Shown: positions 1 through 15,072, counted from the first letter of the stretch. The stretch is DNA of 64,000 nucleotides from an uncultured Candidatus Binatia bacterium (GCA_965213675.1 OZ243916.1:1568001-1632000), one strand, 5' to 3'. Notes: generated by a model not told the origin, from the letters alone. A program made the numbers and translations.

Positions 1-528
1 GCCGCGGATACACCCTTCCTGTTCGCGACGATCCCGGCCCGTGACATTTCTGACGCTGATCTGAGTGACGTCCGGGAATGGCTGTGTGCCGCACTTACGT
101 GGGGCGGGGCAGGCGCCAAGACGATGATCGGTTACGGCCGTTTCGAGAGCAGCGAGCACGAAACGACCAGTTTGAGGGACAAACTGCGCAAGCGCAAAGA
201 AGATCTCGAAACGCTGATGCAAGCCGAACGTACGGCCAGGGAGCGTGAGGAGCGGTTGGCAACCCTCAGTCCTACGGAGCGCGAGATCGAGGAATTGCTC
301 AATGAGCGTCAGGACAGAAACATGCATGAAATCACCGCCGTCATGCAGGTGATCGAGAGCGGACGTTGGACTGGAGAAGCCAGGACTGAAGCCGCACGGT
401 GGCTGGAGAACCGGATGAAGGGTGCGAAGCGATGGAAGGAAACCAGCCAGAAAAAACGCCCTGCCAAGGACCGGGACCATCAGAACACGTTACGCGTCAT
501 GCGCTGGCTGCGGGGCGAAGCATCGTGA
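1..528 (+). CDS. cmr6: Type III-B CRISPR RAMP protein Cmr6, 5'-partial (gene starts upstream of the window)
   Basis: Frame 1 is open from base 1: AADTPFLFAT...EWLCAALTWGGAGAKTMIGYGRF. This is the F-x-F...L..AL...G.GAKT..GYG.F glycine-rich loop of Cmr6, followed by a charged helical C-terminal extension. The ORF track starts it late, at 124. Confidence 0.85.
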   Translation, partial: AADTPFLFATIPARDISDADLSDVREWLCAALTWGGAGAKTMIGYGRFESSEHETTSLRDKLRKRKEDLETLMQAERTAREREERLATLSPTEREIEELLNERQDRNMHEITAVMQVIESGRWTGEARTEAARWLENRMKGAKRWKETSQKKRPAKDRDHQNTLRVMRWLRGEAS

Positions 529-558
529 GGGGCCGCATCGGGTGCCTCAACACTGACC

Positions 559-3500
559 TTGCCTGACGAAGTGAACCCCGTGACCGAGTTGACCGCAACC
601 AACTTCGTCGACTTCTTCACAGCGTCGTGGGGCCATCCGCCCTTTGCATGGCAGCGGACCTTGGCGGAGCGCGTGCTGGAACGTACCGAGGCCCCGTGGC
701 CCGAGGCGATCGCTCTACCGACGGCTTCCGGCAAGACCGCTTGCATGGATGTCGCCGTGTTCGCGTTGGCGGCGCAAGCGTCGCGGATGGCGTCCAAGCA
801 GACCATCACTATGCCTCGCCGCATCTTCTTCGTGGTGGACCGGCGCGTGATCGTGGACGAGGCGTATGAACGCGCCAGACGATTGGCCCAGAAACTGGAT
901 GAAGCGGATGAGGGTATCGTCAAGAGCGTCGCGGACAATCTTCGGCAGATCGCCCACGGCGAACCAGAGGGATACGATCACGAGCGACCGCTGGCTGCCC
1001 ACTTGTTACGCGGCGGGATGTACCGCTCCGAAGCCTGGGCGCGGAATCCGTTGCAACCGACTGTGGTCGCATCCACCGTTGACCAGATCGGCTCTCGCCT
1101 GCTGTTCCGCGCCTATGGACGCGGCTCCGGCACTTGGCCGATCTATGCGGGACTCATCGCCAACGACAGCCTCATCCTGCTCGACGAGGCGCACTGCGCT
1201 CAACCGTTTCTTCAGACCCTGCGGGCGGTTCGACGTTTTCAGACTTGGGGGCATACCCCGCTCAAGCGATTCTTCTGTCCCGTGGTCATATCCGCCACGC
1301 CGCCCGCAGGAATAACGGACGTATTCGAGGACCGGTCCGATGAACGTTCCGATCCGCTTCATCCGCTCGGCCGGCGGCAAACCGCGCATAAGCCGGCGGT
1401 CCTGGAGACAGTCGAGAAAGCCAAAGGAAACCGAGCCACGCATGTGTTGGCTCAGGCTTTGGCCGATGCAGCAACCGGCTTGGTCAGTGAACAACGTCGA
1501 GCGATCGTGATATTCGCCAACCGCGTGGCCACGGCGCGGGAGACTCACCGGCTATTACGGAACGATTACGGAGACCGTGCGATCTTGCTCACCGGCCGTA
1601 TGCGCCCCGTGGATCGAGACGCCGTCGTTCAACAGCGTTTGACGCCCCTTTACTCTCATCGGTCAGAGCAACGCGTACTGAAAGAGCCGCTGGTTGTCGT
1701 AGCTACGCAGACCCTGGAAGTCGGTGCAGACCTTGATTTCGACGGTCTTGTCACGGAATGCTCAAGTCTTGACGCCCTGCGTCAACGCTTCGGCCGCTTG
1801 AACCGCATGGGACGGGCCATCGAAGCGCGAGCAAGGATTCTTGTCCGCGGAGACCAGGCTCACGCGGCCTCGGAAAATCCGGAGTCGGCGAAACAGAAGA
1901 CACGGATGGACGACGACCCGGTTTACGGTGCAGCCTTGGCCCGGACGTGGACGTGGCTCAACATGCACAAGGACGACGGGGATGCGATCGACTTCGGAAT
2001 CATCCATCTCGAACAGCAATTGACGGATGGCGGGTCCCTCGCGGCCCTTGACGCCCCGGCCCGTGACGCCGCGGTGATGCTTCCCGCCCACCTCGATTGC
2101 TGGGCGCAGACGGCCCCGGTCCCATGCCCGTCCCCTGACGTCGGCCTGTTCCTGCACGGCCCGCGCGAAGGAGTGGCTGACATTCAGGTCTGCTGGCGCG
2201 CGGACCTGGATCTGATCGGGGAACAGGAAACGGCGCTGGAGTTGCTATCCTTGTGCCCACCGAGCAGCAACGAAACCCTGCCCGTGCCCATCGGCGTGTT
2301 CCGGCGATGGCTGGCGCGGGGAGATGTCGAAGACGACAGTGCGGACGTGGAGGGAATCGAGGGAATCGGCACGGAGGACGATAGCGACAGAAAAAGTGCA
2401 CCGGTGGTCCGGTGGCGCGGGGCAGACACCGGCCGGGACGACATCACGGACGATCCCAAGGCCATTCGACCCGGCGACGTGATCGTGATTCCGGCCAGCC
2501 ATCCGGGACAGGCGCGCCAACTCGGCGACGTGCCGCCCGACGCTGCCCTCGACGTGGGTGACGAGGCTTATCGTCGCGCCCGTGCCAAATCCATCCTTCG
2601 GCTTCATCCGGCGCTCGTGAACGATTGGCCGGACTTCATCCCGGCGCAGACAGCCGCAGCCGAACTGCTGAAGAGTCTCGAGCAGAAGATGGAGTGCGAG
2701 GACGATTCGAACGACGTGGGTGATGCCTTGCGGGAGATACTGGCGGAGTTGGCCGCCTCGGAACCGACTTCGGAACGGTGGGCCTGGCTGCCGAAAACAG
2801 CCGGAGAGTTGCTGGAAGAGTACCGAAGCGGCGGGTTGGACCGCGCCTGCCGGATTGTCGGCAACGAAAGCATCGTCCTCGTCGGGCATCGCCACCTACG
2901 TCACCTCGCCCACGAAGCCGACAACTTCAGCGACGAGGATGACGCCGCCGCATCCGGCATTTCGCACCGGGACGGAGAACCTGTCCTGCTCGAAAAACAT
3001 CTTCCGGGGGTGGAAACGTTCGCCCGGCGTCACGCCGTGGGCTGTGGACTGCCGGATGAACTGGCGGATGCCGTGGCGCGGGCGGGGCTGTTGCACGATC
3101 TGGGCAAGGCCGACCGACGGTTTCAGTCCATGTTGCGCGGCGGCGCCCTCTGGTCCGACGGGCTGCTCCTGGCGAAATCCTCACGAATGCCCAAAACCCG
3201 AGCGGCCCGCGGTCGTGCGCACGCGGAATCCGGCTATCCCAGACGAGGCCGGCACGAATTGCTCTCAGTGCGTATGGCCGAGACCGCTTCGGCGCTTTTG
3301 CCCAAGGACGAGGAACTGCGCGACGTGGTTCTGCACCTGGTTGCCAGCCATCACGGCTACTGTCGGCCGTTCGCTCCCGTGGTATCTGATCCCGAGGGCG
3401 TGGAGGTTGAGTATGAACTGAACGGGTCGAAGATGTGCTGGTCCGGCCCTACCGGCCTTGAGCGCCTCGATTCCGGCATCGCAGACCGCTACTGGAGATT

Positions 3501-3606
3501 GGTGAGGCGCTATGGCTGGTGGGGCGTGGCTTGGCTGGAAGCCTTGTTGCGACTGGCAGACTGGCGGCGAAGCGAATGGGAGGAGACGCACGGTGCCGAC
3601 GAGTGA
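559..3606 (+). CDS. cas3: Type I-G (I-U) Cas3 helicase/nuclease with C-terminal HD domain
   Basis: PFAWQ, Walker A-like LPTASGKT, VVDRRVIVD, STVDQIGSRLLFRAYG, DEAH, ATQTLEVGADLDFD and QRFGRLNR are present. HD motifs lie at the C-terminus (KHL, LLHDLGKAD, RHE, SHHG, RLAD), which is the I-G arrangement. The start codon is uncertain (559/571/580). Confidence 0.95.
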   Translation: MPDEVNPVTELTATNFVDFFTASWGHPPFAWQRTLAERVLERTEAPWPEAIALPTASGKTACMDVAVFALAAQASRMASKQTITMPRRIFFVVDRRVIVDEAYERARRLAQKLDEADEGIVKSVADNLRQIAHGEPEGYDHERPLAAHLLRGGMYRSEAWARNPLQPTVVASTVDQIGSRLLFRAYGRGSGTWPIYAGLIANDSLILLDEAHCAQPFLQTLRAVRRFQTWGHTPLKRFFCPVVISATPPAGITDVFEDRSDERSDPLHPLGRRQTAHKPAVLETVEKAKGNRATHVLAQALADAATGLVSEQRRAIVIFANRVATARETHRLLRNDYGDRAILLTGRMRPVDRDAVVQQRLTPLYSHRSEQRVLKEPLVVVATQTLEVGADLDFDGLVTECSSLDALRQRFGRLNRMGRAIEARARILVRGDQAHAASENPESAKQKTRMDDDPVYGAALARTWTWLNMHKDDGDAIDFGIIHLEQQLTDGGSLAALDAPARDAAVMLPAHLDCWAQTAPVPCPSPDVGLFLHGPREGVADIQVCWRADLDLIGEQETALELLSLCPPSSNETLPVPIGVFRRWLARGDVEDDSADVEGIEGIGTEDDSDRKSAPVVRWRGADTGRDDITDDPKAIRPGDVIVIPASHPGQARQLGDVPPDAALDVGDEAYRRARAKSILRLHPALVNDWPDFIPAQTAAAELLKSLEQKMECEDDSNDVGDALREILAELAASEPTSERWAWLPKTAGELLEEYRSGGLDRACRIVGNESIVLVGHRHLRHLAHEADNFSDEDDAAASGISHRDGEPVLLEKHLPGVETFARRHAVGCGLPDELADAVARAGLLHDLGKADRRFQSMLRGGALWSDGLLLAKSSRMPKTRAARGRAHAESGYPRRGRHELLSVRMAETASALLPKDEELRDVVLHLVASHHGYCRPFAPVVSDPEGVEVEYELNGSKMCWSGPTGLERLDSGIADRYWRLVRRYGWWGVAWLEALLRLADWRRSEWEETHGADE

Positions 3607-4525
3607 ATTGCCTCCAGGAATTCTACTGGGCGGGATCGACGGGAGCAATCCGCTCGGGTTTCTTGCGGCCATCGGGACGTTGCGGATGGCGACCCGTGCG
3701 TCCCCCTCATCCAACTGGCACCTTCAGTGGCAGGTGTGTGACGGGACATGGACGCCAAAACTGCTGGGGTACGATTCGTTTTCAGAAGACGACCTGATCG
3801 ATCTGCTGATGCCGCCGCTCGAGAAAGCGAAGGACCAACCCGCGCTGACATTTGCCCAGAATCTCAACGTCAGTTGTGAACGGTTCAGAGCCGTAACCGA
3901 AAGAGCCCAGGCAGCAGCCACTCTCACAGATAGGGACGAGGCCGACTTTGTGGCGGCGTTCGGCTGCGAGAGCATGCCCGTTTCAGGCAAGGACCCGACC
4001 ATCCAGGACACCGCGCTGAGAACCATGAGCGGTGCCGGCCATCAACACTTTCTCGGTTCCATGCTGGAACTGACTCAAACGACGGGGCCGGACCATCTAC
4101 GTGCTTCGTTGTTTTTTCCATGGCGGTACTCGGACGACAGACCGAACCTGCGCTGGGACCCCGTGGACGACCGCCGGTATGCCTTGCGTTGGAACGAGCC
4201 CTCGGGCGACCCGGTACGAACCATGCGGGGCGCCAACCGTCTGGCGGTCGAAGCTCTCCCCCTTTTCCCTACCGCTGCCGGAGAAACTCGACTTCAAACA
4301 ACGGGATTTTCGCAACGGCGCCGCGAAGGTGTATTGTTCACATGGCCGATATGGAACTTGCCTTTGAACATCGACACTGTTCGCTCCGTGCTCAGTCTGC
4401 CCGAGTTGCAAGAGCCAAGGCCGAACCGTGACGGACTGTTGGCGATGGGTATCGTCGAGATTTATCAGAGTGAACGAATTACCAGGGACAAGTACCGCAA
4501 CTTCACCGCGGCAACACCCACATGA
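3593..4525 (+). CDS. cas8g: Type I-G large subunit, short Cas8g / Cas8u2-like ('Cas3-extension' family)
   Basis: GIDGSNPLGFLAAIGTLR at the N-terminus, LRWDPVDDRRYALRW and GANRLAVEALPLFP. The GTG at 3593 follows GGAGGA and overlaps the end of cas3. Confidence 0.8.
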   Translation: MPTSELPPGILLGGIDGSNPLGFLAAIGTLRMATRASPSSNWHLQWQVCDGTWTPKLLGYDSFSEDDLIDLLMPPLEKAKDQPALTFAQNLNVSCERFRAVTERAQAAATLTDRDEADFVAAFGCESMPVSGKDPTIQDTALRTMSGAGHQHFLGSMLELTQTTGPDHLRASLFFPWRYSDDRPNLRWDPVDDRRYALRWNEPSGDPVRTMRGANRLAVEALPLFPTAAGETRLQTTGFSQRRREGVLFTWPIWNLPLNIDTVRSVLSLPELQEPRPNRDGLLAMGIVEIYQSERITRDKYRNFTAATPT

Positions 4526-4579
4526 CACAGAGCGTACGGCCTTGAATGGCTTTCCGTTCCCTGTATTGCTCTTCCTCGC

Positions 4580-6292
4580 ATGACTTCTGACGAACAACTC
4601 ACCCTGGCCCTGCCACCGCCTCCGGCCACCGGCGACACGCCGCTTGTCCCGGTCCGCATGATCAACGAATGGGTCTACTGCCCGCGTCTCGCCTACCTGG
4701 AATGGGTGGAGGGAGAATGGGCCGACAGCCAGGCCACGGCGGAGGGAAGACGCGCCCACGCACGGGTCGACGAAGGCGGTGGGCGGCTGCCTGCGCCGGA
4801 AGAACTCGACGAGGACCTTGCCCGCGCCAGGGCAGTCACCCTGTCCTCGGAACGCCTGGGCATCATCGCGAAGATGGACGTGGTGGAGGCTGACGGAGAA
4901 TCGGCCACGCCGGTGGACTTCAAGAAAGGCAAGAGGCCGCATGTGGCCGCTGGCGCTTATGAGCCCGAGCGGGTTCAAGTCTGCGCCCAAGCCATGATCC
5001 TGGAGGACAACGGCTACCGGGTGGAGCGGGGCGCTTTGTGGTACGCCGGCTCACGAGAACGTGTGCCGGTGGCGCTGGACCCCGAGCTGCGGGCGCGGAC
5101 CCTGGAAGCCATATCGGGCCTGCGCGCGGCTGCTGCTTCGGGTCGCCGCCCGCCGCCTCTGCAGAACAGCCCCAAGTGCCCGCGCTGCTCCCTCGCCGGC
5201 ATCTGCTTGCCGGACGAGACCAACCTGTTCCGCAAGGGTTATCCGCCTCGCCAGCTCAACCCTTCGGACAACCCGGCGCTGCCGCTCTACGTACAGACCC
5301 CAGGCGCAAAACTGCGCAAGAGTGGCGAACAGTTGGTCGTCGAAGTGGAGGAAGAGAAAGTGGAGGTGCCGATGATCGACGTGTCCCAAGTGGCGTTGTT
5401 CGGCCCGGTTTCCGTGACCACGCCGGCGCTTCACGCCCTGATGCGCGCCGAGGTTCCGGTTTCGTGGTTCTCAACCGGGGGATGGTTCCTCGGCCACACG
5501 GTGAGCACCGGGAACGGCAACGTGGCGGTGCGCGAGGCCCAGTACCGTTTCGCCTTCGATGAAGGCCGCAGTCTCGCCTTCTCTCGTGACTTGGTCGCGG
5601 CCAAGATACGCAACTCACGGACCCTGTTGCGCCGCAACTGGCGCGACGACCGGGAAGCAGGCGACAAGGCTGAGGCGTTGGAACGGCTGAGACGGCTGGC
5701 CCAACGTGCAACCTACACGGAAAATGCTCAACAACTATTGGGTATGGAGGGTGAGGCCGCGGCCATCTACTTCGCCCGCTTCGAGAACATGCTCGCGCCC
5801 AACGCGGATGAAGGCGTGGCAGCCTTCTCCTTCTCGACGCGCAACCGGCGTCCGCCTACGGACCCTGTAAACGCCATGCTGTCGCTGGCCTATGCCCTTC
5901 TGACACGGACCTTGACCACCGCGATCTCGGCGACGGGACTCGACCCCTACATGGGACTGTACCACCGGCCGCGGCACGGCCGCCCGGCCCTGGCCCTCGA
6001 CCTCATGGAGCCGTTCCGGCCCATTGTCGCCGATTCATGCGTGATCCAGGCCGTCAACAACGGCGAGGTCAAACCAAGCGATTTCGTTTTCAACGGGCCG
6101 AGTTGTGCGCTCAAGCCGGGCGGTCGCAAGGCGTTCATGGCGGCCTTCGAGCGCCGCATGGAACAGGAAACCACGCATCCGGTGTTCGGCTACCGCGTGT
6201 CCATGCGGCGGTTGATGGATGTGCAAGCGCGGCTGCTCGCCCGGCATTTCCAGGGAGAGATCCAGGCGTATCCGCACTATCTGCCCCGGTGA
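4580..6292 (+). CDS. cas4/cas1: Cas4-Cas1 fusion
   Basis: Cas4 part: YCPR, D...DFKKG, QxxxxA and C..C.....C (KCPRCSLAGIC). Cas1 part: LLGMEGEAAAIYF, RNRRPPTDPVNAMLS, GLDPY.G.YH and LALDLMEPFR. Confidence 0.97.
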   Translation: MTSDEQLTLALPPPPATGDTPLVPVRMINEWVYCPRLAYLEWVEGEWADSQATAEGRRAHARVDEGGGRLPAPEELDEDLARARAVTLSSERLGIIAKMDVVEADGESATPVDFKKGKRPHVAAGAYEPERVQVCAQAMILEDNGYRVERGALWYAGSRERVPVALDPELRARTLEAISGLRAAAASGRRPPPLQNSPKCPRCSLAGICLPDETNLFRKGYPPRQLNPSDNPALPLYVQTPGAKLRKSGEQLVVEVEEEKVEVPMIDVSQVALFGPVSVTTPALHALMRAEVPVSWFSTGGWFLGHTVSTGNGNVAVREAQYRFAFDEGRSLAFSRDLVAAKIRNSRTLLRRNWRDDREAGDKAEALERLRRLAQRATYTENAQQLLGMEGEAAAIYFARFENMLAPNADEGVAAFSFSTRNRRPPTDPVNAMLSLAYALLTRTLTTAISATGLDPYMGLYHRPRHGRPALALDLMEPFRPIVADSCVIQAVNNGEVKPSDFVFNGPSCALKPGGRKAFMAAFERRMEQETTHPVFGYRVSMRRLMDVQARLLARHFQGEIQAYPHYLPR

Positions 6293-6298
6293 ACTGCC

Positions 6299-6592
6299 AT
6301 GGCCAATGAGCGTCTCTACATAGTGACTTACGACATCGCCGAGCCCAAGCGCTGGCAAAAGATATTCAAGACCATGAAGGGATACGGTCACTGGCTCCAA
6401 CTGTCGGTCTTTCAGTGTCGGCTCACGGCGCGCCGGCGCGCTGAGATGGCCATGCGCTTGGAAGACCTGATCCGGCCCTCGGAGGATCACATCCTGATCG
6501 TCGACCTCGGTCCCGCCGACAGCGTCGACCCGCGCGTCGAGAGCCTGGGCAAGAGCTACGAGGCGCCGGACCGTCGAGCCACGATCGTTTAG
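6299..6592 (+). CDS. cas2: CRISPR-associated endoribonuclease Cas2
   Basis: YIVTYDI...KRW...GYGHWLQLSVFQC; 97 aa, directly after cas1. Confidence 0.96.
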   Translation: MANERLYIVTYDIAEPKRWQKIFKTMKGYGHWLQLSVFQCRLTARRRAEMAMRLEDLIRPSEDHILIVDLGPADSVDPRVESLGKSYEAPDRRATIV

Positions 6593-6801
6593 GGATCTGA
6601 GGTGCCGAGCCTCTTTCAACCGCTCCCGTAAGGGCAAAATACCGGACAGTGCTCGCAACCTGTTTTTTGTTGTAGGATAAGGAGATATCCAGCTTGGCGT
6701 GGGACTTTCGAGACAGCTTCTGGTACTCTGCGGAACAAGGACCCCCAGCGCTCGCGTTCAGCAAAAATATGCCAGCCCCAAAGGGAAGTTCAGAGGGGGC
6801 T
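6593..6801 (+). promoter_or_regulatory. CRISPR leader
   Basis: About 210-bp non-coding, less GC-rich segment (T-tract near 6661-6670, A-tract near 6763) between cas2 and the first repeat. Confidence 0.75.
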
Positions 6802-9800
6802 GATTCCGAGGCGTGATTGCCTCGGCCTCATTGAAGCTTGATCAGCGGCTTTGACTTTTTCTGGAATGCCATGTGATTCCGAGGCGTGATTGCCTCGGCC
6901 TCATTGAAGCCTACTCCCTAGTTATGGGCCATGCGGCCCGCCATCAATGATTCCGAGGCGTGATTGCCTCGGCCTCATTGAAGCATTGCGACGGGCCGAT
7001 AGGCACAACGAAGTGGTGTAGATTCCGAGGCGTGATTGCCTCGGCCTCATTGAAGCAACCACCCCGGGCACTTCAGGAGATCGTAGAGGCGCTGGGATTC
7101 CGAGGCGTGATTGCCTCGGCCTCATTGAAGCCGGTACACCTTTGGTCGTTTTGGAACGCTTGGCATTCGATTCCGAGGCGTGATTGCCTCGGCCTCATTG
7201 AAGCCAGATGTCCACGGTCCTCGAACGAACCAAGATCGAACAAGGATTCCGAGGCGTGATTGCCTCGGCCTCATTGAAGCCTGGCGCCAGGCCATCTGGG
7301 CCTGCTTGCTGCGCCGATTCCGAGGCGTGATTGCCTCGGCCTCATTGAAGCTTGAGAACGCCGAGGATCGCGCGTTCCAACGCGGACATGATTCCGAGGC
7401 GTGATTGCCTCGGCCTCATTGAAGCCATGAAATCGCACGGTATACCGGACTTACTACGTCCAGATTCCGAGGCGTGATTGCCTCGGCCTCATTGAAGCGC
7501 ACTGGGGATCCTTGGGCTGTAGCCCACACCCATCCTGATTCCGAGGCGTGATTGCCTCGGCCTCATTGAAGCGATGAGGGCTTGCGCGACAAGTTCAATG
7601 CCGGTGGACGATTCCGAGGCGTGATTGCCTCGGCCTCATTGAAGCGACCAGGTGGTTGAACTGTGCCAGCTGGGTGAAGCTCGATTCCGAGGCGTGATTG
7701 CCTCGGCCTCATTGAAGCACGAGGAACTCGCCGTGGCCGTGGGCGCCGCAACCGAGAAGATTCCGAGGCGTGATTGCCTCGGCCTCATTGAAGCTCGTCC
7801 AGCACCACGATCCCTTGCCGTTCGAGATCGAGGATTCCGAGGCGTGATTGCCTCGGCCTCATTGAAGCTACCGCCCGGCGCGCCGCCGCGAACACCGGGA
7901 TCCCCTGATTCCGAGGCGTGATTGCCTCGGCCTCATTGAAGCCGGATGTTCGGTTTACCAAGAATGGCGCGCTTCCAGGGCGATTCCGAGGCGTGATTGC
8001 CTCGGCCTCATTGAAGCCAGTTCTACCAGCGCGAGGGCGCGATCACAGACAGGATTCCGAGGCGTGATTGCCTCGGCCTCATTGAAGCCGACTACGCCGA
8101 ATATACGATCCCGGAGTTGATCCGGGAAGATTCCGAGGCGTGATTGCCTCGGCCTCATTGAAGCATGTGGGACGGGTTTGGGGTAGTCGAGTCGCGTGTA
8201 GAGATTCCGAGGCGTGATTGCCTCGGCCTCATTGAAGCTTCTGCCGCACGTCGAAGGACGAGTAGAAGTAGCGCTGATTCCGAGGCGTGATTGCCTCGGC
8301 CTCATTGAAGCGCGCATATTTAGGGGGGGGGTATGTGTTTTTGCGGTTGATTCCGAGGCGTGATTGCCTCGGCCTCATTGAAGCAATAGCAGTTTTGATT
8401 GCTGCCATCGCCTTCTCTCGCGATTCCGAGGCGTGATTGCCTCGGCCTCATTGAAGCCACGGCCACGCAATGGGCAGAAATCGAGCGGGCGTCGATTCCG
8501 AGGCGTGATTGCCTCGGCCTCATTGAAGCTACGGGCACGAAGCCCATGTGTTCCCGGAGAATGGGGATTCCGAGGCGTGATTGCCTCGGCCTCATTGAAG
8601 CGGGCATGGGATTAGGTTTGTGCCAGATGATTTCCGAGATTCCGAGGCGTGATTGCCTCGGCCTCATTGAAGCATCCCGCCCTTCATGGACTTCGTGCCG
8701 TTCATCAAGATTCCGAGGCGTGATTGCCTCGGCCTCATTGAAGCGAACTCCCATGGCGCCGTTGCATGGGTCCGGGTCCAAGGGGATTCCGAGGCGTGAT
8801 TGCCTCGGCCTCATTGAAGCGAACTCCCATGGCGCCGTTGCATGGGTCCGGGTCCAAGGGGATTCCGAGGCGTGATTGCCTCGGCCTCATTGAAGCGATC
8901 ATTTCTTCCTCCTACTAGGCCTGATGTCGGGCCGATTCCGAGGCGTGATTGCCTCGGCCTCATTGAAGCCACTTCCGGCAACCCTTCAATGCCGTTCTCG
9001 TAGAGATTCCGAGGCGTGATTGCCTCGGCCTCATTGAAGCGGCGCCAGCTTCTTGATTTTCTCGAAGATCAGCCGCGAGGATTCCGAGGCGTGATTGCCT
9101 CGGCCTCATTGAAGCGTACGTGCGAGCGTGTACACCTCCCGGTTTGACAGGGGGATTCCGAGGCGTGATTGCCTCGGCCTCATTGAAGCCCTCATTGTCA
9201 TCAGAGTATAGCGGATGCCTTCGGGCGATTCCGAGGCGTGATTGCCTCGGCCTCATTGAAGCTACTTCCACATCCACGCGTGCTCTGGATCGTCCGCGGG
9301 ATTCCGAGGCGTGATTGCCTCGGCCTCATTGAAGCGCGCTCTGCCACATTACGACTTGCATCGTGGTTTTCCTGATTCCGAGGCGTGATTGCCTCGGCCT
9401 CATTGAAGCTGACATTCATGTTTCTGTAAGGAGGAGATATGAGACGATTCCGAGGCGTGATTGCCTCGGCCTCATTGAAGCGTTTTGCCCGCGGCGCCGG
9501 TCTGATCCCACGGCAGCGATTCCGAGGCGTGATTGCCTCGGCCTCATTGAAGCGCCATGAGATCGTCCATCGTGTCGCGGTACCGGTCGTGATTCCGAGG
9601 CGTGATTGCCTCGGCCTCATTGAAGCAACGGCGATGCGTCGACGATGATTTCCAGAGCTTCCTCGATTCCGAGGCGTGATTGCCTCGGCCTCATTGAAGC
9701 GTACACGTCGCGGCCCTGACGGCGGGCGACGTGCAGCGGATTCCGAGGCGTGATTGCCTCGGCCTCATTGAAGCATTGACCAGTGGATCGGAGACTGGGT

Positions 9801-11603
9801 GATCTCCGTGGATTCCGAGGCGTGATTGCCTCGGCCTCATTGAAGCAGTAAAGTCTCCCGACTCCATCAGCGTCCGTTCGTTATGATTCCGAGGCGTGAT
9901 TGCCTCGGCCTCATTGAAGCCGAGGTAGCCTGCGCCGAACAATCCGAGGAGGCCGGCAGGATTCCGAGGCGTGATTGCCTCGGCCTCATTGAAGCGCGGA
10001 ACAATCGGGTTTCCATGAATTAAGGGAGGCAAGGACGATTCCGAGGCGTGATTGCCTCGGCCTCATTGAAGCGAATTTGTCAAGGCAATTGACACGGCGC
10101 TGTCACGCGGGATTCCGAGGCGTGATTGCCTCGGCCTCATTGAAGCGTGCGGCTGTCGGGCGGGGGTGGATCAAGCGAGGGGAGATTCCGAGGCGTGATT
10201 GCCTCGGCCTCATTGAAGCCAGCGGCGCGGCTTTCGCAGGTTCGAGGCGGTAGAGATGATTCCGAGGCGTGATTGCCTCGGCCTCATTGAAGCCTCGCTA
10301 CACACCACGCAGTACACTGGCTCCTCGCCGATTCCGAGGCGTGATTGCCTCGGCCTCATTGAAGCCGGGAATCAGCGACTTGACGAGAAGCCAGCCTGTC
10401 TCGATTCCGAGGCGTGATTGCCTCGGCCTCATTGAAGCCACCGGGTTCAGGGTGGTGTTGACGCTTGGCGTGGATGATTCCGAGGCGTGATTGCCTCGGC
10501 CTCATTGAAGCCATACGATCCGAGAAAGTTACTTCTTTTGGACCCCACCGATTCCGAGGCGTGATTGCCTCGGCCTCATTGAAGCAGGAATATGCACGCC
10601 ATTGAAGAGAACATAGCGCAGATTCCGAGGCGTGATTGCCTCGGCCTCATTGAAGCCAATATTCTTGTTGACAACCACGACATCCGAATCGAAGGGGATT
10701 CCGAGGCGTGATTGCCTCGGCCTCATTGAAGCCCGACGCCGTACCAACCGGTTACAGCGCGGGGGCCGTGATTCCGAGGCGTGATTGCCTCGGCCTCATT
10801 GAAGCATCGAGACTCCGGCCCGCCTCCACCAGCGTCCGAAACGGATTCCGAGGCGTGATTGCCTCGGCCTCATTGAAGCCCGACATGATGGAGGATATTC
10901 AAGGCCAGGAAATCGCGGATTCCGAGGCGTGATTGCCTCGGCCTCATTGAAGCCGATCCTCCTTCGTAGAGATCTTCTCCACGTAGTAAGTGATTCCGAG
11001 GCGTGATTGCCTCGGCCTCATTGAAGCAAGTAGCCACCGCATCGAGGTTGCCGCCTCGCGCACCCGATTCCGAGGCGTGATTGCCTCGGCCTCATTGAAG
11101 CGCCACCCCTTGTGTATGGTCGGCGGCGGATGCGGCGGATTCCGAGGCGTGATTGCCTCGGCCTCATTGAAGCTGGTGGACCAGACTTCGGCCGCGCTGA
11201 CAAAGGCCGGGCGATTCCGAGGCGTGATTGCCTCGGCCTCATTGAAGCTCCTCATCCGCGTCCCCGTCCAGTGTGGGCGGTTCGGATTCCGAGGCGTGAT
11301 TGCCTCGGCCTCATTGAAGCGCGGCGATGTGGCCGTGGTGGATCGTGGCGACATGGACGATTCCGAGGCGTGATTGCCTCGGCCTCATTGAAGCGTGAGC
11401 GTCTTCGCCGGGTCGCCGATCACATCCAACGCGATTCCGAGGCGTGATTGCCTCGGCCTCATTGAAGCTTCTCCTGCTCGATCTGCGCCTTCGCCTTGTC
11501 GGCAAGATTCCGAGGCGTGATTGCCTCGGCCTCATTGAAGCCTCCTTGAAATGTGGTTGAAGTAATATGTGGCCACGATTCCGAGGCGTGATTGCCTCGG
11601 CCT
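6802..11603 (+). CRISPR. CRISPR array: 65 complete 36-bp repeats GATTCCGAGGCGTGATTGCCTCGGCCTCATTGAAGC, a 66th truncated to 27 bp, and 65 spacers of about 35-41 bp
   Basis: Repeats counted by hand from 6802 to 11577. Internal hairpin CCGAGGC/GCCTCGG. The 3' ATTGAAGC end and the leader position give + orientation. Confidence 0.98.
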
Positions 11604-11817
11604 TGTAGCGGACAACTGTAAATGTCCCATTTGTGTCAATCGAAAATGTCCCACATTGAAGATTGCGAGGAGGTGTACGTCGGGCCAGTCTGTTGGCAAA
11701 AGCCAACAGGAATGGAGCGGCGAACCGATGCACGGATGGGAGACGAGGATGCTGCTCAGGCACTACCTAGAGCAAGGTGTAACGAAGACGGAGCTGTCGT
11801 GGCGGTTCGGGCTGAGT
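11604..11817 (+). mobile_element. istA: IS21-family left end plus istA 5' fragment, inserted in the last array repeat
   Basis: Starts TGTAGCGGACAAC and carries two copies of AAATGTCCCA 24 bp apart (11620, 11644), as in IS21 multi-repeat ends. The ATG at 11728 gives MHGWETRMLLRHYLEQGVTKTELSWRFGLS, an IstA-like HTH start that then breaks off. Confidence 0.8.
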
Positions 11818-11994
11818 GAGGTGGTCATGGTGTTCTCCTGAAAGGTTGGTTATCCGTAAACACGAACCTATTCCTTCCAGGAGCGGTGTCGCCACCGCCG
11901 GCGCCCTCCTCGCTTGCCTTTGGACGCTGATGGCGGGACTGTCACGTGATTACCGTCTCAATACACACTGGCGGTGTCCCCGCCCACGCCCCGC

Positions 11995-12021
11995 CTGGAT
12001 TCCCGCTTTCGCGGGAATGAC
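11995..12021. repeat. REP-like palindrome (GGATTCCCGC-TTTC-GCGGGAATGAC family), copy 1
   Basis: ATTCCCGC/GCGGGAAT inverted repeat; related copies at 34464 and 54548. Confidence 0.7.
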
Positions 12022-12094
12022 GCTTCGTAGGCCGTGTTTCGAATCGCTCTTCACGAACTATTTTGCAACATTGGGATTTGGCTGACACGCTCGA

Positions 12095-12130
12095 GATTCC
12101 GAGGCGTGATTGCCTCGGCCTCTTTGAAGC
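12095..12130 (+). CRISPR. Orphan, degenerate terminal CRISPR repeat
   Basis: GATTCCGAGGCGTGATTGCCTCGGCCTCTTTGAAGC, one mismatch to the consensus. Confidence 0.9.
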
Positions 12131-12174
12131 AGGCCGCTCCCTTACTTCGGTACGGTTGGCGATAACAAACCGGC

Positions 12175-12203
12175 TTGACATCACATCTGGCCGGTCCAAT
12201 AAT
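12175..12203 (+). promoter_or_regulatory. Putative sigma70 promoter of the phd-vapC pair
   Basis: TTGACA-N17-AATAAT. Confidence 0.55.
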
Positions 12204-12209
12204 CCAGCC

Positions 12210-12485
12210 ATGACAACTGGACGAGGATACGGGTTGGCGGAGTGGCCGCTGCAAGATGGGCGGAACAGATTCAGGGCCATGCTGGACGCGGCACGGCCAA
12301 GTGTGCCGCAACGAATGACCCGACGCGGCAAACCCGTCGTCGTGTTGGCCGTCGATGAATTTGAGTGCCTGCGCCACGTCGAGAGGGCGAGGGCGCCTGG
12401 ATTCGCGGAGTTGCTGCGCGCGATTCCACAGGATGGGGCGTATCTCGACCGGCTTGCATCGCCGTCACGGCCAGTGGACGCCTGA
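12210..12485 (+). CDS. Phd/YefM-family antitoxin (possibly degenerate)
   Basis: EWPLQDGRNRFRAMLDAA...PQRMTRRGKPVVVL..DEF matches the Phd/YefM pattern. Start at 12210 or TTG 12234. Confidence 0.75.
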   Translation: MTTGRGYGLAEWPLQDGRNRFRAMLDAARPSVPQRMTRRGKPVVVLAVDEFECLRHVERARAPGFAELLRAIPQDGAYLDRLASPSRPVDA

Positions 12486-12661
12486 TGTTTTTGATCGACA
12501 TGGATGTCTTGACCGCCCTCAGGAAGAGCGAACGTAACCCCGCGGATTTGCTGCGCGCGGCCACCGCACTCGAACATGGGCTGACCGTGATGACTTGCAA
12601 CATCCGCCACTTCAAAGCTGCCGGCGTCCCTGTGGACGACCCGCCCGCACCCCGCTCCTGA
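12485..12661 (+). pseudogene. vapC: VapC/PIN toxin with a large internal deletion
   Basis: The N-terminal MFLIDMDVL is joined directly to the C-terminal DLLRAATALEHGLTVMTCNIRHF...VDDP. Only 58 aa against about 135 expected. TGATG overlap with the antitoxin. Confidence 0.8.
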
Positions 12662-12711
12662 TCCACGTCACCGTGTTCCCATGCAATTCCACACAACCCG
12701 GAGATTTCTCG

Positions 12712-14994
12712 ATGATGAAATACGTCGGCCGATCAGTCCGCAGCCTGGACGCGGATGAAAAAGTCACCGGCACGGCCGTCTACACGGCGGACCTCACCAT
12801 GCCGGGCATGAAGTTCGCCCGGATCGTGTCGAGCCCTCACGCCCATGCGCGCATCGACGGTTTCGACCTCGACGCGGCGCGGGCGGTGCCGGGTGTGTGC
12901 GCCGTCGTGACGTACGGCAGCCTGGAGATCGGGCGGCTGGGTTGCATTCGGGCGCTCAAGCTCTATGGGCAATCGGTCAAGGACCGCCCGGTGCTGGCCC
13001 ACGGGAAGACCCGCTTTCAGGGGGAGCCGGTGGCCATCGTGGTGGCGGACAGCGAGACCGCGGCGGTGGAGGGGGCGGCGCGGGTGGAGGTGCGATACAC
13101 GCCGCTGCCGGAGGTGGCCGACGTGATGCCCGCCATCGAGGGCGGCACACTGGTGCACGACGCTGGCGCGGTGTACGACACCGAGGGCGCCGACGACTTC
13201 GAATACGACTACGCCCACAACCACTGCGGCGGCACCCACTTCATGGAAGGCGATCCGGAGCGCGCCTTTGGCGAGGCCGCCCGGGTCATCGAGGACCGCT
13301 TCACGTTCCCGTCGCTGTTCCACTATCCCATGGAGCCCCACTGCGCCGTGGCCATGGTGGACGAGTCTTCGGTCACCGTGCACAGCTCCTCCCAGGCGCC
13401 CTTTCCGGTGCGCGACGAGCTGGCGCGCATGTTCGGGCTGGAGCCCGGGCAGGTGACGGTGAAGGTGCCCTACGTGGGCGGCGGCTTCGGCGCCAAGGGA
13501 CACGTGAGCATGGAGCATCTGGCCGTGCTGGCGGCGGCCGCCACCGGGGCGCCGGTGCAGCTTCGCCTGTCCATGGAGGAAACCGCGTTCACCGCCCGGC
13601 GCCATCCGGCCGAGATCGCCATCCGCACCGGCATCAGGGAAGATGGCACGCTCTTGTGCCGCGAGGCGAAGATCTACCTCGACACCGGTGCCTACGCGGA
13701 TTTCGGCATTCAGGTGACGCGCAAGGCCGCGTTCCGCTCGGTGGGACCCTACCGCGTGGAACACGCGCGCGCCGATTGCTACTCGGTGTACACCAACAAG
13801 GTGCCCGCCGGGGCCTTTCGCGGCATCGGCAGCGTGCAGCTCGGCTGGGCGTGCGAGGCGCATACCGACCACATCTGCGCCGAACTGGGCTACGACCCCA
13901 TCGAGTTCCGCCGCAAGAACCTGCTGCGCTCCGGCGAGAAGTACGTGCTCGGGGGACCGCCCCTGGATGGCAGCCCGCTGGACACGTTTCAGGTGTGCCT
14001 GGAACGCTTCGAGGCGTCCCGGCGGGAACGCGCGCCGGAGTCCCTGGCCCGGCCGGGGGAAAAGATCGGCACCGGCATCGCCTGCGCCATCAAGGACCTG
14101 TCCACCACCCTGTACAACGCCCGCATCGTCTTCGAGGACGACGCCACCTTTACCGTGCATGCCAACGCCCCGGAGATCGGCGGCGGCGCCAAGACCGTGC
14201 TGGCGCAGACCGCGGCCGAAGTGCTGGGCGTCGGCATCGAGCGGATCACCATCGCCCCCTACGACACCAGCACCGCGCCCGGCGCCTCCGGCGTCTACGG
14301 CAGCCGCATCACCGTGCTCATGGGCAACGCGGTGAAGCGCGCGTCCGAAGAACTGCGGGAGCTGCTGCTGCAACAGGCCGCGGCCCTCACCGACCGGGAC
14401 GTGCAGAACCTCTCGCTGGACGACGGCGTGTTTTCGAACAGCGGCGAGCCGGTGATGAACCTGGAGGAACTGGCGGAACGCACCACGGGCACGCTGGTGG
14501 GCCGGGGCATGGACAAGGCCCTCACCCGCGACCGCATCGACATCCGCACCTGGGAGATCAACGCAGGCATCGCGGTGATGGCGGTGGATCCCGAAACCGG
14601 CCGCACACGCTGTCTGAGCTACGTTTCCTCGGCCGACATCGGCCAAGCCATGCACCCGCTGCGGTGCGAGGGCCAGGAGCAGGGCTCGGTCATGTTCGGC
14701 ATGGGCAACTCCCTCACCGAGGAACAGGTGTTCGACGGCGCCCTGCTGCTGAACCCCAGCGCCATCGACTACGCGCTGCCGCGCTTCAAGGACCTGCCCG
14801 CGGTGTTCGACTCGGTCCTCATCGAGAACGGTGATGGCCCCGGCCCCTTCGGCAGCAAGGGCATGGCCGAAGGCGGCCTCGCCCCGGTGGCCCCCGCCAT
14901 CGCCGCCGCCCTGTACAATGCTGTGGGCGTGGTGGTGCGTGACCTGCCCATGAGCCCCGAGCGGGTGTACCGTCTGATGGATGACGGACGCTGA
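12712..14994 (+). CDS. Xanthine dehydrogenase-family molybdopterin-binding large subunit
   Basis: KVTG.A.Y..D, SPHAHARI, GGGFGAK, AFRGIG and GSKGMAEGG. Confidence 0.92.
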   Translation: MMKYVGRSVRSLDADEKVTGTAVYTADLTMPGMKFARIVSSPHAHARIDGFDLDAARAVPGVCAVVTYGSLEIGRLGCIRALKLYGQSVKDRPVLAHGKTRFQGEPVAIVVADSETAAVEGAARVEVRYTPLPEVADVMPAIEGGTLVHDAGAVYDTEGADDFEYDYAHNHCGGTHFMEGDPERAFGEAARVIEDRFTFPSLFHYPMEPHCAVAMVDESSVTVHSSSQAPFPVRDELARMFGLEPGQVTVKVPYVGGGFGAKGHVSMEHLAVLAAAATGAPVQLRLSMEETAFTARRHPAEIAIRTGIREDGTLLCREAKIYLDTGAYADFGIQVTRKAAFRSVGPYRVEHARADCYSVYTNKVPAGAFRGIGSVQLGWACEAHTDHICAELGYDPIEFRRKNLLRSGEKYVLGGPPLDGSPLDTFQVCLERFEASRRERAPESLARPGEKIGTGIACAIKDLSTTLYNARIVFEDDATFTVHANAPEIGGGAKTVLAQTAAEVLGVGIERITIAPYDTSTAPGASGVYGSRITVLMGNAVKRASEELRELLLQQAAALTDRDVQNLSLDDGVFSNSGEPVMNLEELAERTTGTLVGRGMDKALTRDRIDIRTWEINAGIAVMAVDPETGRTRCLSYVSSADIGQAMHPLRCEGQEQGSVMFGMGNSLTEEQVFDGALLLNPSAIDYALPRFKDLPAVFDSVLIENGDGPGPFGSKGMAEGGLAPVAPAIAAALYNAVGVVVRDLPMSPERVYRLMDDGR

Positions 14995-15072
14995 GGCGAA
15001 ACCGGGCGGTTCGCGTGGGCCCGGACCGTCACTCCATTTGGCGTTCGCCCCAAGTCACGTTAAACTACCGAC

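Follow-up and report, generated by a model that had tools for sequence, protein, structure and literature searches.

A composite type I-G and type III-B CRISPR-Cas locus with a Cmr cassette between csb2 and cas3g in a Candidatus Binatia genome

CRISPR-Cas type I and type III modules are known to share loci and parts. In P. furiosus a Cmr module is tied to a type I system, which those papers label 'I-G', in one Cst-Cmr locus (PMC4666368, available text), and in the Marinomonas I-F/III-B case one array serves a DNA-cutting and a transcript-sensing effector, an arrangement that provides backup against phage escape mutants (PMC5576922, available text). The accessible portion of Data Set S2 of a myxobacterial survey (PMC11237760) lists a 'Hybrid(I-G,III-B)' locus in a Nannocystis metagenome-assembled genome (MAG), a 'Hybrid(I-G,III-D)' locus in a Sandaracinus MAG, a 'III-B' locus whose repeat is of I-G type, and many III-B loci without Cas6 and adaptation genes, and hybrid loci in general are treated in the accessible part of the CRISPRCasTyper preprint (10.1101/2020.05.15.097824). 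For type I-G itself, the text seen of the same survey gives csb1-csb2 followed by cas3-cas8u1 or cas3-csx17 and describes a G-type repeat (PMC11237760). For H. ochraceum, the accessible part of a preprint describes cmr1-6, csb2 ('a cas6 homologue') and a mini-array in one plasmid for interference assays in E. coli (10.1101/2023.06.23.546230). Here we describe a locus of an uncultured Candidatus Binatia bacterium in which a type III-B Cmr cassette stands between csb2 and cas3g of a type I-G operon. The window, i.e. the whole stretch of 64,000 nt that was analysed (G000:C1:1568001-1632000), holds the 3' part of this locus, and the 18 kb 5' of the window were also read from the genome.

Gene content and order

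Open reading frame (ORF) listing together with scans of the upstream 18 kb against NCBIfam, Pfam and PADLOC profiles gave the full gene order csb1-csb2-(csx1-cmr1-cas10-cmr3-cmr4-cmr5-cmr6)-cas3g-cas8g-cas4/1-cas2-array, all on one strand, with neighbouring genes that overlap or leave small gaps. The genes in brackets form a type III-B cassette of 8.27 kb without a cas6, cas1 or cas2 of its own. The window starts within the last 175 codons of cmr6, the remaining cassette and the I-G backbone lying upstream and outside it. The first-pass annotation had read the beginning of the window as a cmr6 followed on the same strand by cas3-cas8g-cas4/1-cas2-array, and the profiles confirmed all of these genes. 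Its remark that neither cas7 nor cas5/6 stands in between is literally true; csb1 and csb2 stand outside the window, immediately upstream of the Cmr cassette, and the apparent 'missing backbone' is an artefact of the window edge. Annotation of the upstream sequence, which it had proposed as a check, yielded csb1, csb2, cmr1-6, cas10 and the CARF effector csx1, which corresponds to the first of its two options, a Cmr module inserted in an I-G operon. We give a probability of about 80% to the reading that the locus is a composite of type I-G and type III-B, in which a Cas6-less Cmr cassette splits a canonical I-G operon exactly where csb2 meets cas3g and in which the supply of CRISPR RNA (crRNA) is shared.

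The I-G part begins with csb1/cas7g (C1:1556737-1557960, + strand, as are all genes of the row), which scored 74.5 bits with TIGR02570 (cut-off 38) and 179.6 bits with Pfam Cas_GSU0053, and continues with csb2, the Cas5-Cas6 fusion that is the I-G signature (C1:~1557960-1560311; TIGR02165 297.9 bits, cut-off 45; PADLOC Cas56g E=1.9e-120). 3' of the cassette follow the helicase-nuclease gene cas3g (window 580..3606; TIGR02621 710.5 bits, cut-off 400), cas8g encoding a short large subunit of 337 aa (3512..4525; PADLOC Cas8g, CAS-I-U effector_LS, E=2.8e-92), the cas4/cas1 fusion (4580..6292; NF049935 787.8 bits, cut-off 560) and cas2 (6299..6592; profile scans). Cas3g carries DEAH (residue 209) and, towards its C-terminus, HD (residue 846), in the numbering of the 1015-aa ORF that begins at 559. 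This TTG at 559 is the earliest possible start of cas3g, and the start conserved in relatives is the GTG at 580; the gap of 30 bp noted earlier between cmr6 and cas3 thus holds for the former and becomes 51 nt with the latter. NCBIfam names the Cas8g protein 'type I-G Cas3-extension family' (NF049934 276 bits, cut-off 65). The cas8g ORF overlaps the 3' end of cas3g, hidden Markov model matches start at residue ~37-39, and the true start is probably near 3620. Two long + strand ORFs 5' of csb1 (643 and 948 aa), considered as candidate Cas8 genes, were matchless in the NCBIfam, Pfam and PADLOC scans. They are shadows of a minus-strand gene for the large subunit of glutamate synthase, so the operon begins at csb1. 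Ordinary metabolic genes lie 3' of the array.

The cassette opens with csx1 (C1:1560313-1562061; CARF-HEPN-CARF; PADLOC E=1.9e-141) and cmr1 (C1:1562015-1563064; profile scans), followed by cas10/cmr2 (C1:1563061-1565028), whose product of 655 aa scored 133.9 bits with TIGR02577 (cut-off 79.4) and matched Pfam Cas10-Cmr2_palm2 and Cmr2_N. cmr3 (C1:1565025-1566143) scored 76.2 with NCBIfam, below the cut-off of 100.4, and 200.6 with Pfam (cut-off 21), and cmr4 (C1:1566158-1566982) and cmr5 (C1:1566979-1567389) were assigned by profile scans. The last gene, cmr6 (C1:1567329-1568528; window 1..528 is its 3' end), encodes 399 aa that as a whole score as Cmr6 (TIGR01898 127.1 bits, cut-off 51.1; PADLOC Cmr6 E=5.7e-41), which bears out the earlier claim that the window opens inside a Cmr6 gene. 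The frame of window 1-528 (175 aa, 5'-open) includes GGAGAKTMIGYGRFE; taken alone, this 175-aa fragment matched no Cas family in Pfam or NCBIfam, its sole match, Med9, being spurious. With Cmr1, Cmr3, Cmr4, Cmr5 and Cmr6 all found, the III-B subunit set is complete, and all seven cassette genes are intact.

The catalytic motifs of the cassette are intact as well. Cas10 has the cyclase motif GGDD at residue 413. No HD dipeptide was found in its first 150 aa, and since Cmr2_N begins at residue 6 there is no room for an HD nuclease domain. The HD domain occurs in many, not all, Cas10 proteins, and this one would be a signalling-only Cas10. Csx1 carries the HEPN motif RNGYHHH. Cmr4 was aligned over its full length to P. 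furiosus Cmr4 (4wnz_A), which places the Asp of GVVDLP opposite D26; in P. furiosus, D26A abolishes cleavage, according to the available text of PMC4333402.

Csb2 of this locus is also unusually long, ~783 aa compared with the usual ~500, owing to a ~200-aa insert between the two Cas_GSU0054 halves (G000:C1:~1558720-1559470; L002:8722-9471). The insert holds a motif resembling a phosphoribosyl pyrophosphate (PRPP) loop (EYLMVDDFVGQGGTLANL) and shows a weak likeness to adenine phosphoribosyltransferase (PDB 6fsp E=0.003; Pfam PF00156 20.9 bits, below the cut-off of 26.3). Identity is at least 71% among the 120 matches listed out of 383 in the database, some of which are named 'type I-U Csb2' and come from MAGs of Gemmatimonadota and Deltaproteobacteria, and the insert is found with or without a type III cassette. 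Its AlphaFold model is poor (mean pLDDT, the predicted local distance difference test, 59.8; 6-sequence alignment), and a Foldseek search of this low-confidence model against the PDB returned nothing at E<=0.001, phosphoribosyltransferases ranking first at E 0.03-0.3. A C-terminal extension of Csb2 in L010 is unrelated to the insert, and in the literature we found no paper joining Csb2 to phosphoribosyltransferase.

The csb2/cas3g junction

Comparison with three empty sites in which csb2 abuts cas3g (G073, G273 and G142) pointed to the way the cassette was joined to the operon. In such empty sites, the stop of csb2 and the start of cas3g overlap, e.g. GTGACTGA in G142. Here, csx1 begins 1 nt past the csb2 stop with GTG ACT GAG TTG ACC, and cas3g begins at window 580 with the near-identical GTG ACC GAG TTG ACC, the first five codons (VTELT) being common to both genes. 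A repeat search returned the corresponding direct repeat as the first-listed family (D1) of the region: the left copy, 17 nt, is the start of csx1 (CGTGACTGAGTTGACCG; C1:1560312-1560328, + strand), the right copy, 17 nt, lies at window 579..595 (CGTGACCGAGTTGACCG; + strand), and the two are identical at 16 of 17 nt and 8267 nt apart, start to start. A third, weaker copy (82%) is found inside the cassette. Between the cmr6 stop (window 526-528) and cas3g lies a spacer of 51 nt (529..579, + strand), and its alignment to the three empty sites revealed that it keeps a relic of the csb2 3' end, GACGAAGTGAACCCC here vs GAAGAAGTGAAGACC at the empty sites. Together, the flanking 17-nt repeat, the csb2 relic and the borrowed cas3g codons show that the cassette carries a duplication scar and that its first gene took over the start of cas3g.

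To place the junction among its relatives, 13 + 6 genome loci were examined beside 72 metagenome loci with this Csb2, of which 56 are informative, i.e. extend at least 500 nt past csb2. cas3g directly follows csb2 in all 56 informative loci, with a gap of -16 to 117 nt, and csb2 abuts or overlaps cas3g in three relatives as well, in agreement with the earlier statement that csb1-csb2 normally stand right before cas3g. The nested arrangement is therefore unusual and not a chance pattern. In a class-wide sample of 301 genomes, Cmr6 relatives were found in 23, Cas10 palm matches in 38 and Cas3g-like matches in 34; among the 21 other genomes of the genus, Cmr6 relatives were found in 3 and Cas3g-like matches in 11 (the Cas3g tally includes the unpublished G213). 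When coordinates were compared by eye, the only genomes with a Cas10 and an I-G-like Cas3g less than 10 kb apart were G000 (the genome of the window), G065, G169 and G261, all of one genus. G155, with a weak Cas3 match and a Cas10 match 6 kb apart, is a possible fifth.

The congener G065 (locus L004) has the same order as the locus described here, csb1-csb2-csx1-cmr1-6-cas3g-cas8g, with Cmr6 80% and Cas3g 82% identical, and so provides the second cmr6-cas3(I-G) adjacency that the first-pass annotation had suggested looking for. In this genome a minus-strand ORF of 278 aa, of no known defence family, stands between cas8g and the adaptation gene (L004:15181-16394), and the adaptation protein (432 aa, matching from profile position 106) is without the Cas4 part.

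A different type III cassette occupies the same junction in another congener. In G169 (L018, G169:C1:3644001-3663000; 10064-15055, minus strand), a Csm-type cassette of ~5 kb lies at the csb2/cas3g junction and encodes a Csm-kind Cas10 without HD (507 aa), Csm2, Csm3, Csm4 and a CARF-HEPN Csm6/Csx1; no Csm5 was seen in it. In its I-G proteins, G169 shares 90-100% identity with the window. Within the genus the junction is thus found empty (G273, G073), with csx1-cmr1-6 (G000, G065) and with cas10-csm2-csm3-csm4-csm6 (G169), and it is empty in G142 of another family. In G261 (L022, G261:C1:1455001-1474000), csx1-cmr1-6 is found upstream of csb1 in an I-G module that is more distant, whose adaptation genes are 90-95% identical to the window's and whose effectors are 27-46% identical (Csb1 46%, Csb2 ~35%, Cas3g 36%, Cas8g 27%). 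A csb2 fragment of 58 residues, 69% identical to the window's Csb2, stands there between cas8g and cas4/1, and a second csb2-like stretch past cas8g occurs in several metagenome loci (L059, L061, L024, L025). Such fragments and second copies look like a sign of module shuffling in I-G loci.

These junction states raise the possibility, which we put forward only tentatively, that in this I-G lineage the csb2/cas3g junction is a reusable docking site for Cas6-less type III cassettes, i.e. that these are exchangeable 'guest' modules of I-G systems. The junction copy may then have been regenerated before cas3g after the cassette took the cas3g start, and, if the proposal is true, the Cmr clade would be a specialised dependant of Csb2-processed crRNAs. 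The differing type III cassette at the same junction of a congener is a natural experiment on the swapping of interference modules.

A single array and the supply of crRNAs

Downstream of cas2, a leader of 209 nt (window 6593..6801, + strand, by sequence reading) precedes a CRISPR array (6802..11541, + strand) in which 65 identical repeats of 36 nt (GATTCCGAGGCGTGATTGCCTCGGCCTCATTGAAGC) alternate with 64 spacers 35-41 nt long. The distal end (11542..12130, + strand, read from the sequence) is degenerate: an extra spacer is followed by a repeat cut off after its first 26 nt (11577-11602), an insertion of ~490 nt and a lone repeat with one mismatch (12095-12130). A short ORF in this ~490-nt insert was read by eye, with no library search behind the reading, as a transposase-like helix-turn-helix fragment. 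When folded, the array's repeat forms an 8-bp hairpin, after which come CCUC and AUUGAAGC. According to the available text of PMC9638904, Csb2 of Thioalkalivibrio cuts 4 nt 3' of the hairpin, leaving an 8-nt handle, and the geometry of the repeat here agrees with this published cleavage site. The features of an I-G repeat and adaptation module are all present, i.e. a 36-nt hairpin repeat ending in TTGAAGC, a Cas4-Cas1 fusion and Cas2.

The array is the sole one in the G000 genome, which is 97.7% complete in 21 contigs with an estimated contamination of 8%. The genome has a single Cas1 (one PF01867 match), no paralogue of any cas gene was found in it, and three Cas6 models gave no match. The locus thus combines a single adaptation module and a single array with two interference modules that differ in type, as a composite locus does. 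Because no other array, Cas1 or Cas6 was detected, and in view of the published pairing of csb2 with Cmr, we infer that both effectors draw their crRNAs from the same array via the same enzyme.

Judged from its genes and motifs, the locus would most likely work as follows. The co-oriented row would be transcribed together, and the Cas4/1-Cas2 module would fill the single array. Csb2, the only Cas6-like RNase detected, would cut the repeat 4 nt past the hairpin and yield crRNAs with an 8-nt 5' tag (AUUGAAGC), and the same crRNAs would be loaded into two effectors. Csb1/Csb2/Cas8g together with Cas3g would attack DNA, and the Cmr complex would sense transcripts, complementary ones being sliced via Cmr4. 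The HD-less GGDD Cas10 of the Cmr complex would make cyclic oligoadenylate, which would activate the CARF-HEPN-CARF RNase Csx1. Both crRNA-guided RNA cleavage and cyclic oligoadenylate synthesis by this Cmr complex are thus predicted activities.

Several observations weigh against a common crRNA supply as a general rule or leave a step of it without explanation. The three Cas6 models miss some Cas6 families, and control searches with them were positive in only 2-6 of 14 reference genomes. Promoter and terminator scans of the operon did not rise above shuffled sequence (1 promoter-like site vs 2.0 expected; 11 terminator-like sites vs 12.8 expected). tblastn of the 72 metagenome I-G loci gave no matches to Cmr/Csx1 or to the Csm proteins of G169, a search that divergent type III genes in the flanks could escape, and this count of 0/72 indicates that most I-G systems operate without such a partner. 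No Csb2 match was found in G061 and G095, which carry Cmr6 relatives (53% and 49% identical), indicating that the Cmr clade is not I-G-dependent everywhere. Finally, Csb2 remains on the crRNA's 3' end in I-G Cascade, according to the text seen of PMC9638904, which leaves the hand-over of crRNA to Cmr unexplained.

The count of 0/72 and the two genomes without detectable Csb2 would also suit the view that the Cmr cassette is an independent or idle passenger, which landed by chance and relies on another nuclease for crRNA maturation or is unused. We consider this unlikely, since all seven cassette genes are intact with their catalytic motifs kept and the genome lacks a second array, a second Cas1 and any detectable Cas6. 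Moreover, the cassette is under purifying selection similar to that of the I-G genes: between G000 and G065 the ratio of nonsynonymous to synonymous substitution rates (dN/dS) is 0.18-0.36 in cassette genes and 0.09-0.27 in I-G genes, with a synonymous rate (dS) of ~0.4-0.7 in both sets, cmr1 excepted. Low dN/dS with similar dS in both sets agrees with a single ancestral insertion, after which purifying selection acted on the two sets jointly. cmr1 (L002:12015-13064 vs L004:4471-5715) is an outlier with 54% amino acid identity and dS 1.10, vs 78-81% and 0.38-0.66 in its six neighbours, which suggests that it alone was exchanged or is evolving much faster.

The recurrence of this Cmr clade in or beside I-G loci of several phyla argues in the same direction. 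Relatives of this Cmr6 were found in 13 genome loci of at least six phyla, and 8 of the 13 have I-G genes within 10 kb, in varying positions: the cassette stands after csb2 (L004, L010), before cas3g (L012), between csb2 and cas4/1 (L014), between cas3g and csb1 (L015), after cas3g-cas8g (L016), between cas4/1 and cas2 (L013) or convergent with the I-G genes across an array (L007). In the remaining five genomes, Csb2 is encoded elsewhere in 5/5 and Cas3g scores above cut-off in the 4/4 tested. PF01881 Cas6, a model that misses many Cas6 families, had no match in five other Cmr-bearing genomes. Arrays beside the Cmr6-relative loci end in TTGAAG(C) in 10 of 10 cases. In a Paracoccaceae MAG (L006, 11199-21067), an opposite-strand I-G-type array of at least 112 repeats adjoins cmr6, the nearest I-G cas genes being ~25 kb off. 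One further member, in a Planctomycetota MAG (L009:13103-16455), has csx1-cmr1-6 flanked by the BREX gene PglX and a PsyrTA pair, within a defence island.

A physically hybrid effector, in which Cmr recruits Cas3g/Cas8g, e.g. by the C-terminal tail of Cmr6 that the first-pass annotation had proposed as their partner, is in our view very improbable. What speaks for it is that cmr6 adjoins cas3g (window 528/580) and that Cmr6 has an extra ~125-aa tail, a helical stretch of ~110-130 residues past the GYGR loop and beyond the RAMP domain, with a conserved LSP-ERE helix. All 12 clade members that were aligned have this tail, among them five (L005, L006, L008, L009, L011) whose loci lack I-G genes within 10 kb. 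It is thus kept regardless of I-G linkage and is a clade trait, and a role in docking Cas3/Cas8g finds no support. In addition, the cassette lies away from cas3g in L014, L015 and L022, and the full I-G Cascade gene set is present here.

An assembly chimera joining a Cmr locus to an I-G locus might be suspected from the 21 contigs and the estimated contamination of the genome; it is hardly credible. Four runs of one study contain at least 97% of the sampled words from window 1-1200, compared with 26-36% in runs of a second study. Zero-mismatch contigs over the 9.5 kb from csb2 to cas3g span csb2/csx1 in runs X1 and X2 and cmr6/cas3g in X1, which may be the source sample, and a second-study contig of 5.8 kb, ~5% diverged, also spans cmr6/cas3g. 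Contigs from two studies thus bridge the junction, the independent genome G065 has the same order, and the junction bears a specific duplication scar, so that a misassembly, a concern raised at first annotation, finds no support. The second option of that annotation, Cas3/Cas8g kept beside a Cmr complex with the csb1/csb2 backbone absent, is refuted by Csb1 (179.6 bits, Cas_GSU0053) and Csb2 (297.9 bits, TIGR02165) directly upstream of the cassette.

Comparison with known systems

Compared with canonical I-G, as given in the available texts of PMC11237760 and PMC9638904, all parts are present here with profile scores over curated cut-offs, and the geometry of hairpin and tag matches; the differences are the 8.27-kb III-B cassette that splits csb2 from cas3g, a junction invariant elsewhere, and the ~783-aa Csb2 with its ~200-aa phosphoribosyltransferase-like insert. 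The P. furiosus Cst-Cmr locus, as far as its available description goes, is like this one in having a III-B Cmr module and a type I system in one gene cluster. It differs in that the P. furiosus system is an archaeal Cst, whereas the one described here is Csb, i.e. modern I-G, with a single array and Csb2 as the only candidate processor. P. furiosus uses a Cas6 that stands alone, and it has several arrays along with two type I systems.

H. ochraceum resembles the locus in the pairing of a Cas6-less Cmr1-6 with I-G Csb2 for pre-crRNA processing, in the available part of 10.1101/2023.06.23.546230, and its I-G repeat ends in ...GGCCTCATTGAAGC, the same 14 nt as here, in the accessible portion of Data Set S2 of PMC11237760. 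By the same data its III-B and I-G loci are megabases apart, whereas here they form one operon. The effectors also differ, SAVED-CHAT/PCaspase there and Csx1 here, the Cmr sets being compared by gene content. The hybrid loci of PMC11237760 likewise combine I-G and type III genes in one cas cluster; in the accessible data they are known by type label and coordinates. Our literature searches brought up catalogue entries and remarks of a general kind; an account of type III genes nested at csb2/cas3g was not among them, the gene-order figure for hybrid loci in PMC11237760 being outside the sources seen, and PMC10952691 gives gene names only.

The phrase 'undescribed architecture', used in the first-pass annotation for its second option, was therefore an overstatement: composite type I/III loci, the label 'Hybrid(I-G,III-B)' and Csb2 serving a Cmr complex are already known. 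The locus is a compact natural example of a dual-effector system for the little-studied type I-G; with every part in one operon it suits heterologous reconstitution, and it makes the question of how Cmr gains access to Csb2-bound crRNA testable. What it adds beyond the catalogue of known systems is the insertion scar, the reuse of the junction by another type III cassette and the link between a Cmr clade and I-G across phyla.

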